Shown in pieces: positions 2,112 through 3,766 of a stretch of DNA of 22,583 nt. Position 1 is the stretch's first letter, and every line of letters begins with the position of its first letter. The translations under genes and the position numbers were made by a program. A model generated the notes under the pieces. The model was not told the DNA's origin, did no database searches, and saw nothing but the letters and a program-made list of their open reading frames with translations. The DNA comes from a virus. The stretch lies in UHGV virus genome UHGV-1292143; one strand, 5' to 3'.

Positions 2112-2146
2112 CTCGTAGAATCTGGTGTGTTAACCGATTCTACGAG
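2112..2146. repeat. perfect 11-bp inverted repeat CTCGTAGAATC-N13-GATTCTACGAG
   Basis: Seen directly; lies 7 bp upstream of the 1539-2105 start and overlaps its ribosome-binding site. Related to the 3721-3766 palindrome (shared GTAGAAT...TTAAC...CGATTCTACG core). Confidence 0.8.
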
Positions 2147-2235
2147 ATGTCATTTGTCCATTGTGCCAACTGTTATTATGGATATCATAATTCATACGAA
2201 TCGCGCTGCTACAGGATGTATAGCAACCTTAATAA

Positions 2236-3495
2236 TTATTTGAATATATCAGTTATAGTTGGGTAATTATACATCTTAAGCTTATCTCTAAATTTCATAG
2301 AAAATATAGGGTCTACCTTACATCTGTGTAAGAGCTTTGCAATCCTTAGCTCCCTCTCATTCATAATATCTTTGTATTCGCTATCAATACTTTCCTGAAT
2401 TTGCTGATTCTCAACAGGAGACGGTTTAGTAATTTTATCCCATTGATAAGTTGGCTTCGTAGTGTAATTTAAACTATCATCATTTTGGAGTAATGCCTCA
2501 AGACGAGACTTAGCATTTTCATATAGCATTCTATCTTGGGGCAACATACTTGCAACACGCATTTCCATTTCAATTTCCGATACTATCATTTCAAGTTGAC
2601 GTTTTTCCGTTTCAATAGCTAAAAGAAATGGAAATAGGGCTTCTTGCTTAATCATTTGACAATTCAAATTATTGTTTATGCCACTAAGTAATTTTGTAAA
2701 TGAGAACTTCTTTAAAGGCTGCTGATTTATAACACTCTGTCTAACTGGCATTGTGTAGTTCGGTGTTTTTTCAAGTGTTTTCTTCACTTGCTCTATAGCA
2801 ACATTAGGAGTGTTGAAAACAGTCTTTGCTGGAATACGTAGCACCATAAACCCCTCCTTTATTGAATATTCATCACGAATACGATCTCGCTCTATTTGTT
2901 CTGGGGATGAATGCCATGCTGCACCATCAATTTCTATAATTTGGCGTCCATTTACGACAAAATCAAAACGATAACGCTTATAGGGCACTTGCATTTCAAG
3001 CACTAAGTCAGGAGAAACTAACATTCCAGATTTAGGTTTAAGATTAAACTCTGCAACCATTTTACGAAGAAATGCCTCCTCAGCCGGAGATTCGCAACCT
3101 TTGCAAAATATATCAAGCCAGTTTTCTGCGTCAGCGTCAACAGTTTGCCACCATGCTAACAGTCCACGTCGGTGTCCATATAATCGTTCATCTGACGGTT
3201 TTGTTAATGGCTTTGTTAACGGTTTAACTAAGGGTTCATTTAACGGCTTTAATAACGGCTTAAATAACGGCTTATTTAACGAATTTAATAACGATTTATT
3301 TAATGGTTTGATTGACGGTCTATTTGACGACTCAATCGGTGGTTTAGATGATGATTTGTTTTTTTTATCAAAACCTACGATAGTTATATATGCTACATAT
3401 AGCATCATGCCTGCAACAGGCCATACACATGGATAAATCACGTAACACAACAGTAATAGAACAATAGTCCCAAAAAATGTTAACTTCTTCCGCAT
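2236..3495 (-). CDS. membrane-anchored protein with DUF559/Vsr-like (PD-(D/E)xK-type) endonuclease-like domain (419 aa)
   Basis: N-terminus MRKK + hydrophobic hairpin (FFGTIVLLLLCYVIYPCVW / MMLYVAYITIVGF); Pro/Lys-rich tetrapeptide repeat linker; core YRFDFVVNGRQIIEIDGAAWHSSPEQIERDRIRDEYSIKEGFMVLRIP matches the DUF559 signature (RxDF ... IEIDG..H ... D..R ... G..VLR); C-terminal ~190 aa predicted helical, unknown. Confidence 0.6.
   Translation of the reverse strand: MRKKLTFFGTIVLLLLCYVIYPCVWPVAGMMLYVAYITIVGFDKKNKSSSKPPIESSNRPSIKPLNKSLLNSLNKPLFKPLLKPLNEPLVKPLTKPLTKPSDERLYGHRRGLLAWWQTVDADAENWLDIFCKGCESPAEEAFLRKMVAEFNLKPKSGMLVSPDLVLEMQVPYKRYRFDFVVNGRQIIEIDGAAWHSSPEQIERDRIRDEYSIKEGFMVLRIPAKTVFNTPNVAIEQVKKTLEKTPNYTMPVRQSVINQQPLKKFSFTKLLSGINNNLNCQMIKQEALFPFLLAIETEKRQLEMIVSEIEMEMRVASMLPQDRMLYENAKSRLEALLQNDDSLNYTTKPTYQWDKITKPSPVENQQIQESIDSEYKDIMNERELRIAKLLHRCKVDPIFSMKFRDKLKMYNYPTITDIFK
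3195..3356 (-). repeat. about 13 imperfect tandem 12-bp units inside the 2236-3495 CDS, encoding K-P-L-x tetrapeptide repeats
   Basis: Plus-strand units such as TTAATAACGGCT / TAAATAACGGCT / TATTTAACGAAT; translated on minus strand as LNKP LFKP LLKP LNEP LVKP LTKP LTKP. Confidence 0.8.
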
Positions 3496-3720
3496 ACCAA
3501 ACTCTTTGCATCAATAAAGGGGACTGGCTTATATAATCAAATCACATGCCCGAAATAAAAGATGACCAACACCAACGGAAATCACACTCTAAACTAATAT
3601 ACATTAACACTTAATATCGCCATCACAATTGATTGATTATGCTAATTTAAAAATGATATTTTTACAGAGAATATACAGCTCTACAAGATGACTATTACAC
3701 CAAAATTTAAAAAAATCATT

Positions 3721-3766
3721 GGCAACCTTGTAGAATTGATATTAACAATCGATTCTACGGGTTGCC
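3721..3766 (-). terminator. long inverted repeat (GGCAACCTTGTAGAAT-N15-ATTCTACGGGTTGCC) followed on the minus strand by a T-run; likely terminator of the 4874-3811 transcript
   Basis: 15-16 bp arms with one mismatch; minus-strand sequence after the hairpin is AATGATTTTTTTAAATTTTGG. The 15-nt loop is large for a terminator. Confidence 0.45.

Follow-up and report, generated by a model that had tools for sequence, protein, structure and literature searches.

Two related palindromes beside a DUF559 gene in a P1-like phage-plasmid: the late promoter-leader hairpin LPsit and a diverged duplicate

Why does a nuclease-domain gene lie between two long palindromes that resemble each other? The question is raised by UHGV virus genome UHGV-1292143, a stretch of 22,583 nucleotides that was analysed as a whole and is called the window here. 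Its left and right palindromes stand on either side of a gene for a protein with a DUF559 domain. An earlier note on this DNA offered three possible meanings for them: operator sites for one regulator, RNA hairpins, or cassette boundaries left by a site-specific recombination event. The answer that computation supports well is a duplicated promoter-leader hairpin, that of the phage P1 late promoter LPsit, in which a known regulatory design would be combined with a scar of recombination.

The palindromes themselves are real, non-random and homologous. Read directly from the sequence, the left one consists of CTCGTAGAATC (2112-2122), 13 nt and GATTCTACGAG (2136-2146), and the right one of GGCAACCTTGTAGAAT (3721-3736), 15 nt and ATTCTACGGGTTGCC (3752-3766), which is where the earlier note had placed them. 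With a repeat finder the arms of the left palindrome lengthen to 17 nt (2106-2122 and 2136-2152, 88% complementary). The true span of the right one is 3720-3767, with one unpaired extra base in one arm. The pattern GTAGAAT-N10-25-ATTCTAC has exactly two matches in the 22.6-kb window and none in 100 dinucleotide shuffles, and exact matches to CGATTCTACG occur in the window only at the two palindromes. The motif is indeed found nowhere else in the window, and the two sites do bracket the DUF559 gene, a minus-strand open reading frame (ORF) of 419 aa. Could two unrelated palindromes look alike by chance? AT-rich DNA is full of short inverted repeats, and the bare 7+7 motif gives many unrelated database matches; a scan of viral contigs with it returned at least 120 chance matches and was uninformative. 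Nevertheless, we regard the probability of a chance likeness as negligible and have rejected it: none is expected in shuffles, the likeness covers about 54 nt, including a -22 box, a Shine-Dalgarno sequence (SD) and an ATG in the same order and orientation, and the synteny of P7-like plasmids, described below, agrees.

The window comes from a phage-plasmid of the P1-like (IncY) type. The region has 100% identity with a group of IncY P1-like phage-plasmids from E. coli, e.g. pE2 (NZ_CP086663), and phage P1 matches window 1400-2163 without gaps at 98.4% identity, the match stopping after 2163. The P1 GenBank record (AF234172 / NC_005856) annotates LPsit on the minus strand, with a '-22 region' that falls at window 2147-2155 and a -10 element at 2137-2142. 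This late promoter, together with the leader of pmgC, is the left palindrome: it has the same position upstream of pmgC, with a -22 box, a 4-nt spacer and the -10 TAGAAT. The record differs from our description in that it annotates the -22 and -10 elements only, and is silent on the inverted repeat by which promoter and pmgC ribosome-binding site pair. The left site, read on the minus strand, is AC-AAATGACAT-ctcg-TAGAAT-cggttaacacacca-GATTCTACGAGG-tttca-ATG, and its parts are as follows.

2147-2155, minus strand: -22 box of LPsit, AAATGACAT (AAATGACTA in P1), also the outer part of the 5' arm (mapped annotation, late-promoter alignment, and rank 3 of 45,130 positions with a position weight matrix, PWM)
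2137-2142, minus strand: -10 hexamer TAGAAT of LPsit, within the 5' arm (annotation and alignment)
2136-2152, minus strand: 5' arm of the left hairpin (perfect core 2136-2146), upstream of the predicted late start
2123-2135, minus strand: loop of the left hairpin; the predicted LPsit start would lie at about 2130-2131, 6-7 nt past the -10
2106-2122, minus strand: 3' arm of the left hairpin with the pmgC SD GAGG (2111-2114), ending one base before the ATG (2103-2105)

The 5' arm is the -10 hexamer with the spacer and the 3' arm is its exact complement. The suggestion that the left copy covers the SD of the downstream gene at 1539-2105 was correct, and that gene is P1 pmgC.

Late promoters of P1 are sigma-70 promoters activated by Lpa via a conserved 9-bp element, the -22 box, to which Lpa binds (PMC10695390). 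LPsit belongs to this class, whose activity depends on Lpa (gp10) and on host SspA. The consensus that we derived from the annotated P1 set is AAGTNACTT-N4-TANNNT, with no -35, and the left copy agrees with it at 16.0 bits. The top-ranked PWM match in the window is LP23 (15826-15844). The second-ranked one (18.6 bits) is AAGTGACTT-tagc-CAGCAT at 7741-7759 on the minus strand, a perfect Lpa -22 box that lies antisense at the start of repL; the P1 record lists no late promoter there. We also considered a divergent late promoter on the plus strand that would use the other TAGAAT and rejected it: its -22 position, CATTGAAAC, has 4/9 matches by eye and is outside the top 15 PWM matches. LP26 has -22 and -10 elements near-identical to those of LPsit and no downstream complement; therefore the 3' arm is a feature of the leader and not a requirement of the promoter. 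CRISPR interference blocks in simA, simB and simC are non-polar on the essential gene pmgC (PMC10695390). Late pmgC expression is therefore independent of upstream transcription, which fits LPsit as the operative promoter.

What, then, is the right palindrome? By its sequence it is a diverged second copy of the ~54-nt LPsit module, and we name it LP'. It reads GC-AAATGGCAA-cccg-TAGAAT-cgattgttaatatca-ATTCTACAAGGTTGCCA-ATG on the minus strand and can be divided in the same way.

3762-3770, minus strand: degenerate -22-like box of LP', AAATGGCAA (alignment and PWM)
3752-3757, minus strand: -10-like hexamer TAGAAT of LP' (alignment)
3752-3767, minus strand: 5' arm of the right hairpin, UGGCAACC-C-GUAGAAU
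3737-3751, minus strand: loop of the right hairpin (folding)
3720-3736, minus strand: 3' arm of the right hairpin, AUUCUAC-AA-GGUUGCCA, with an SD-like AAGG (3726-3729)
3681-3719, minus strand: 12-codon mini-ORF, MIFLNFGVIVIL followed by a stop, from the ATG that matches the pmgC start in LPsit

The likeness of the two copies is thus broader than had been noticed before, running on the minus strand from the -22 box through the -10 and the hairpin to the SD and the ATG. Order, orientation and spacing are the same in both (-22-like box, 4-nt spacer, TAGAAT, hairpin, SD-like AAGG, ATG). Aligned with the P1 late promoters, the copies have in common the -22 box, CxCG, TAGAAT, CG, the hairpin, ATTCTACRAGGTT and the ATG. 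Of the shared core proposed earlier, GTAGAAT and its complement stand, being the -10 hexamer TAGAAT and its complement. The TTAAC between them lies in the loop, varies among relatives and is probably not significant. P1 itself lacks the right copy, which here stands upstream of a DUF559 gene. The homology of LP' to LPsit and pmgC stops just past the ATG, which is the junction with the DUF559 cassette. In P7/SJ46-like plasmids the order is membrane-protein gene, DUF5384 gene, LPsit and pmgC, with LPsit-pmgC 30 nt past the DUF5384 gene; the membrane-protein and DUF5384 genes of the window are 76% (nt) and 80% (aa) identical to these homologues. Hence LP' occupies the position of LPsit relative to the DUF5384 gene. 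The spacing and the -10 of AAATGGCAA-cccg-TAGAAT are correct. Its weight-matrix score is 10.5 bits, the eighth rank in the window, and drops to 5.9 bits (rank 64) when the matrix is built without LPsit and LP26. LP' is probably a weakened late promoter or a relic promoter-leader, and it may still drive late transcription of the DUF559 gene.

A dimeric DNA-binding regulator that binds both palindromes and co-regulates pmgC and the DUF559 gene would leave just such near-perfect inverted repeats, with a shared half-site GTAGAAT and an overlap with promoter elements at both places. However, the half-site is nothing but the -10 hexamer of an annotated Lpa-dependent promoter with its complement, the spacing is 13 in one copy and 15 in the other with the centres 22-24 bp apart, the intervening sequence varies among relatives, and the combination of a conserved half-site with a fixed spacing that marks a palindromic operator was not found. 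The known activator Lpa binds the -22 box and not the repeat (PMC10695390), and the motif is present at none of the other P1 late promoters. Furthermore, the outer arms differ between the copies and yet are complementary in each, so pairing rather than recognition by a protein is indicated. Comparing the outer helix of LP' with that of LPsit, an A-U pair has become G-C, a U-A pair has become C-G and two mismatches have been repaired, the price being a 1x2 internal loop. With as many changes placed randomly in the LPsit arms, the hairpin weakens to -14.4 +/- 2.9 kcal/mol, and the -22.8 kcal/mol of the right copy is reached in 0.5-0.9% of 5,000 trials. Such pair-preserving changes favour base pairing over protein recognition of a fixed half-site. 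An operator for one regulator, as the earlier note allowed, therefore seems improbable to us, while its second option, RNA hairpins, is the one that the evidence favours.

The predicted RNA structure depends on where the transcript begins. Folded on the minus strand, RNA that reads through from upstream reaches -25.2 kcal/mol (z-score -5.95) at the left copy and the above -22.8 kcal/mol (z-score -5.4) at the right copy. RNAs from the predicted late start are essentially unstructured (-2.6 kcal/mol left, -0.2 kcal/mol right). With the -10 hexamer lying in the 5' arm, transcription that begins 5-9 nt downstream of it would start in the loop. By partition function the mean unpaired probability from SD to AUG drops from 0.54 in the late transcript to 0.18-0.24 in the read-through RNA; at most 2% of controls with dinucleotide shuffling of the upstream 60 nt reach this level. 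LPsit is alone among the 11 annotated P1 late promoters in showing a drop beyond shuffles. Fold-back gating as a general design of P1 late promoters was rejected, the drops at LP23, LP26 and LPpac being smaller and within the shuffle range. By eye, stretches complementary to the SD can be seen just past or inside the promoter at LP23 (CTCTTCC/GGAAGAG), LPdar (CCTCCT/AGGAGG) and LPpac (CTTTCGT/ACGAAAG); in folding none of them goes beyond shuffled controls.

The module is also conserved, which the earlier note had asked to see: it is present in all 509 of 509 P1-like plasmids, with invariant stems and a variable loop. Among 89 P1-like copies, variation is seen at 5 of 13 loop positions and at 0 of 22 core stem positions (Fisher p = 0.004). 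Taken by itself, the 3' arm, which plays no part in the promoter, varies at 0 of 11 positions in these copies (p = 0.04). As evidence of selection on pairing this difference between stem and loop is weak because the 89 copies are closely related.

What might such a hairpin do? On the strength of the models we consider it fairly probable that it is a translational gate with a late promoter inside the hairpin, as in T4 e and I-TevI, and that the right copy adds a recombination scar to it. In this model LPsit (-22 box, spacer and -10) would serve as the 5' arm, and the 3' arm would hold the pmgC SD, ending beside the AUG. Transcripts that read through from co-oriented cargo (the sim genes in P1, the DUF559 or DUF5384 gene here) would hold both arms, would fold and would not permit initiation at pmgC. 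Transcripts made by Lpa-activated RNA polymerase would start in the loop, would be without the 5' arm and would be translatable. In this way the late tail operon would be shielded from read-through of lysogenic or early origin. One may speculate that the silent read-through RNA would then be subject to Rho-dependent polarity. Co-oriented cargo ORFs end shortly before LPsit, 10-100 nt from the -22 box, and a canonical terminator was found neither in the window nor in the P7-like or L179 contexts. The L143 context has one weak terminator-like hairpin.

Several observations speak against translational gating, or at least reduce the force of the argument for it. Stem invariance is partly due to promoter and SD constraints and to close relatedness, and no covariation was found within the 89 P1-like copies. 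The covariation argument is thin, as it would have to be carried by one diverged copy of uncertain ancestry. The right hairpin is more stable on the plus strand (-28.7 kcal/mol), where no gene or promoter is evident. In P1 an intrinsic terminator follows simC at about 75 nt before LPsit, which would leave less need for a gating device there. The box of LP' departs, with G at position 6 and A at position 8, from two invariant bases of the P1 late promoters, and its score is below that of every annotated P1 late promoter. Finally, LP' would gate only the 12-codon ORF and not the DUF559 gene, whose start is 185 nt beyond the stop of the mini-ORF. No Rfam family was found at either palindrome. As to divergent homologues of PmgC in which covariation could be sought, those of Serratia and Pantoea (58-61% identity) sit within an operon with no promoter upstream; the module is therefore specific to P1-like phages.

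The hairpins might instead be 3'-end elements, the left one terminating or stabilising the DUF559 mRNA and the right one the DUF5384 mRNA. Both are stable and lie downstream of co-oriented genes, and a run of seven U residues begins 5 nt past the right hairpin. On the other hand, a U tract is missing at the left hairpin (GGUUUCAAUGACACC), the loops measure 13-15 nt, and a terminator scan called neither site, so that no Rho-independent terminator was recognised at either copy. The U run on the right is offset, lies on the cassette side of the junction and is absent in P7-like LPsit. Nor would a 3'-end role explain why the 3' arm is an SD and the 5' arm a promoter. We think this explanation unlikely for the two palindromes together, even if it deserves to be kept in mind. 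A 3'-end function could be an added role of the right copy, and LP' with its U run may act as a poor terminator or 3' stabiliser of the DUF5384 transcript.

If a promoter-leader hairpin accounts for what the palindromes are, how did a second one come to lie on the other side of the DUF559 gene? The genes around the palindromes are all on the minus strand.

917-1528, minus strand: tub
1539-2105, minus strand: pmgC, first gene of the P1 late tail operon (pmgC-tub-pmgB-sit...), from the P1 match and GenBank annotation
2236-3495, minus strand: DUF559/REase_MTES_1575 nuclease-domain gene, 419 aa, in an AT-rich cassette (about 34% GC) at about 2164-3716
3811-4350, minus strand: DUF5384 gene, with a P7/SJ46-like homologue (80% aa identity) that lies directly before LPsit-pmgC
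4362-4934, minus strand: gene for a glycine-zipper/TraT-like membrane protein, first of the DUF5384 module

Homology to P1 returns at 5166 (P1 48142), which is the Oc4 operator of the c4-icd-ant immunity region. Being flanked by P1 homology, window 2164-5165 replaces the simABC superimmunity genes of P1; it is a variable cargo locus between LPsit and Oc4. The cassette has a GC content of about 31-35%, compared with about 47% in the flanks, and consists of the mini-ORF and AT-rich DNA with the DUF559 gene, followed by P1-type LPsit-pmgC. It was found solely on P1-like plasmids, never in a chromosome, and in 23 of 5,426 E. coli genomes. LP' was found in a single lineage, comprising 16 plasmids in a blastn search of plasmids for distant matches, and a viral contig and a metagenome contig, one of each, belong to the same lineage. 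A viral scan with canonical LPsit matches removed, a metagenome scan, the plasmid blastn search and a search for DUF5384 relatives in viral contigs yielded no donor of LP', only its own lineage or chance matches, and in these viral, metagenome and plasmid searches no relative with LP' ahead of pmgC was found. In the derivative lineage L005, DUF559-LPsit-pmgC is kept, and the DUF5384 gene and LP' have been lost by deletion.

The duplication has an independent parallel. In L171 (IMGVR_UViG_2913167280_000003, 1040-2500) a near-identical LPsit and the first 45 nt of pmgC have been duplicated, and the two copies flank AT-rich cargo, a gene for a 297-aa multi-pass membrane protein on the opposite strand; the simC terminator is kept beside the downstream copy. 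About ten extra LPsit places exist among the 509 plasmids. Upstream of the -22 box, P1 homology extends no more than about 10 bp, and the sequences that adjoin LPsit on this side belong to at least five unrelated contexts.

Are the palindromes then recombination or nuclease targets, attC-like sites or a homing site of the DUF559 protein, at which a dedicated system inserts cargo? The direct repeats around the DUF559 cassette and around the L171 cargo, the extra LPsit places and the abutting of unrelated contexts on a homology break near the -22 box would all suit such a system. However, the junctions differ, lying right after the ATG in the window and 45 nt into pmgC in L171, and the crossover point is thus not fixed. 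The other edge of the variable region is the Oc4 operator, which has no such palindrome, and there is no recombinase gene in the neighbourhood. The left copy is in all 509 plasmids regardless of cargo, and L005 keeps the DUF559 gene without the right copy. The DUF559 cassette is found at this locus only, and N-terminal membrane segments, as predicted by eye for its protein, would be atypical for a homing enzyme. A dedicated recombination system is distinctly unlikely in our opinion. Very improbable is the still more specific idea that the LPsit hairpin is the docking point of cargo exchange, where a nuclease or recombinase, perhaps a homing-type DUF559 enzyme expressed from LP', would recognise it as a DNA hairpin or cruciform, so that cargo in the place of sim would be inserted beside a duplicated promoter-leader.

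The notion of cassette boundaries is therefore right as a description, since direct repeats flank an AT-rich DUF559 cassette, and L171 shows cargo bounded by two copies too; what does not agree with the differing breakpoints of these two independent cases, or with a left copy in every P1-like plasmid with or without cargo, is site-specific recombination. Since the junctions differ, we read the duplications as scars that mosaic or illegitimate recombination has left at a hot spot for cargo. The sequence evidence points to such recombination between P1-like genomes as their likely source. LP' was probably once part of the membrane-protein/DUF5384 module of a more distant P1 relative. Recombination would then have put the DUF559 cassette and P1-type LPsit-pmgC right after the ATG of LP', severing LP' from its own pmgC.

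The DUF559 protein itself has a hydrophobic N-terminus (3380-3495) with, judged by eye, probably two membrane segments, a linker of degenerate KPL/NKPL repeats (window 3180-3330; seen in the DNA as an inverted/direct repeat), a nuclease domain at aa 163-241 and a C-terminal region of about 180 aa without a family match. A membrane-tethered nuclease at the superimmunity locus of P1 suggests a role in superinfection exclusion or defence. With PADLOC the DUF559 protein gave weak nuclease-domain matches only (PDC-S37, Hhe), and the other two cargo proteins gave none; a tblastn search of a phage collection found no match.

A late promoter that doubles as one strand of an inhibitory helix has precedents. 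In T4 e, soc, 49, I-TevI/II/III and segB and in Aeh1 mobE, the 5' strand of such a helix holds the late promoter; longer early or middle transcripts from upstream hide the SD and AUG, and translation proceeds on late transcripts, whose start is inside the structure (PMC3014915, PMC2988022). LPsit resembles them, by prediction only, in that a helix sequesters the SD and AUG and has the late promoter in its 5' strand. It differs in that T4 uses gp55/gp33 with TATAAATA, whereas here, in a different phage family, it is sigma-70 and Lpa with a -22 box. Moreover, upstream transcription in T4 is early or middle in a lytic cycle, while in this temperate phage-plasmid it is presumed to be lysogenic or to come from cargo. 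Another relative of the design is fold-back inhibition in IS10 and IS50, where the 5' part of transcripts that come in from outside pairs with the translation start of the transposase, a segment missing from transcripts of the element's own promoter; its purpose is to guard the transposase from outside activation, and no activator-dependent promoter is involved. Integron attC sites are similar in being imperfect palindromes that flank a gene cassette, but here there is no integrase, the junctions are not fixed and the palindrome is a promoter and leader in all relatives. The LPsit hairpin is not annotated among the features of the P1 record, and neither a description of it nor maps of P1 start sites were found in the accessible literature; non-open literature may hold an earlier mention.

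Some other features of the window can be mentioned. The variable cargo region stops exactly at the Oc4 operator, and the C4 antisense RNA and the a1/b1 target element beyond it are intact on the plus strand (5241-5293 and 5362-5447; Rfam RF01695, RF03163). IS1 is present at both window ends (1-257 and 22479-22583), with 92% and 100% identity to P1 IS1 and in opposite orientations. Window 257-386 corresponds to an internal piece of P1 sit (43041-43170), directly adjoined by P1 44856 (pmgB), meaning that about 1.7 kb of sit/pmgB has been deleted and sit is interrupted by IS1. With the late tail operon downstream of LPsit broken in this way, the plasmid is probably a defective phage. In pE2, beyond the left end of the window (L002 1-515), a gene annotated as anti-phage deoxyguanosine triphosphatase adjoins IS1 and is further defence cargo. 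A non-P1 segment at 8600-10497 takes the place of rlfA/rlfB and carries a hok/sok-type toxin-antitoxin, with sok RNA at 8751-8925 on the plus strand (Rfam sok, 114 bits). The par region (15942-18318) has about 65% identity to P1 parA, and the flanking repA/incA and gene 23 have 95-98%. This is a mosaic exchange of the partition module and agrees with IncY/P7-type typing.

P1, a reference temperate phage, is the prototype of a large phage-plasmid family whose cargo includes genes for resistance and defence. If translational gating at LPsit is correct, it would explain how cargo expressed in the lysogen can lie head-to-tail with an essential late tail operon, in several lineages without a terminator, and not cause leaky production of tail proteins. 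It would also extend a regulatory design of T4 to a temperate phage whose late promoters depend on sigma-70 and Lpa. Engineering of the P1 sim locus, or the use of LPsit as a portable promoter, would then call for caution, as the leader would have a translational switch built into it. Whatever the hairpin does, the edge of this promoter is the recurrent left border of a cargo hot spot that lies between Oc4 and LPsit, and the right copy illustrates how mosaic recombination may duplicate modules and leave them behind.

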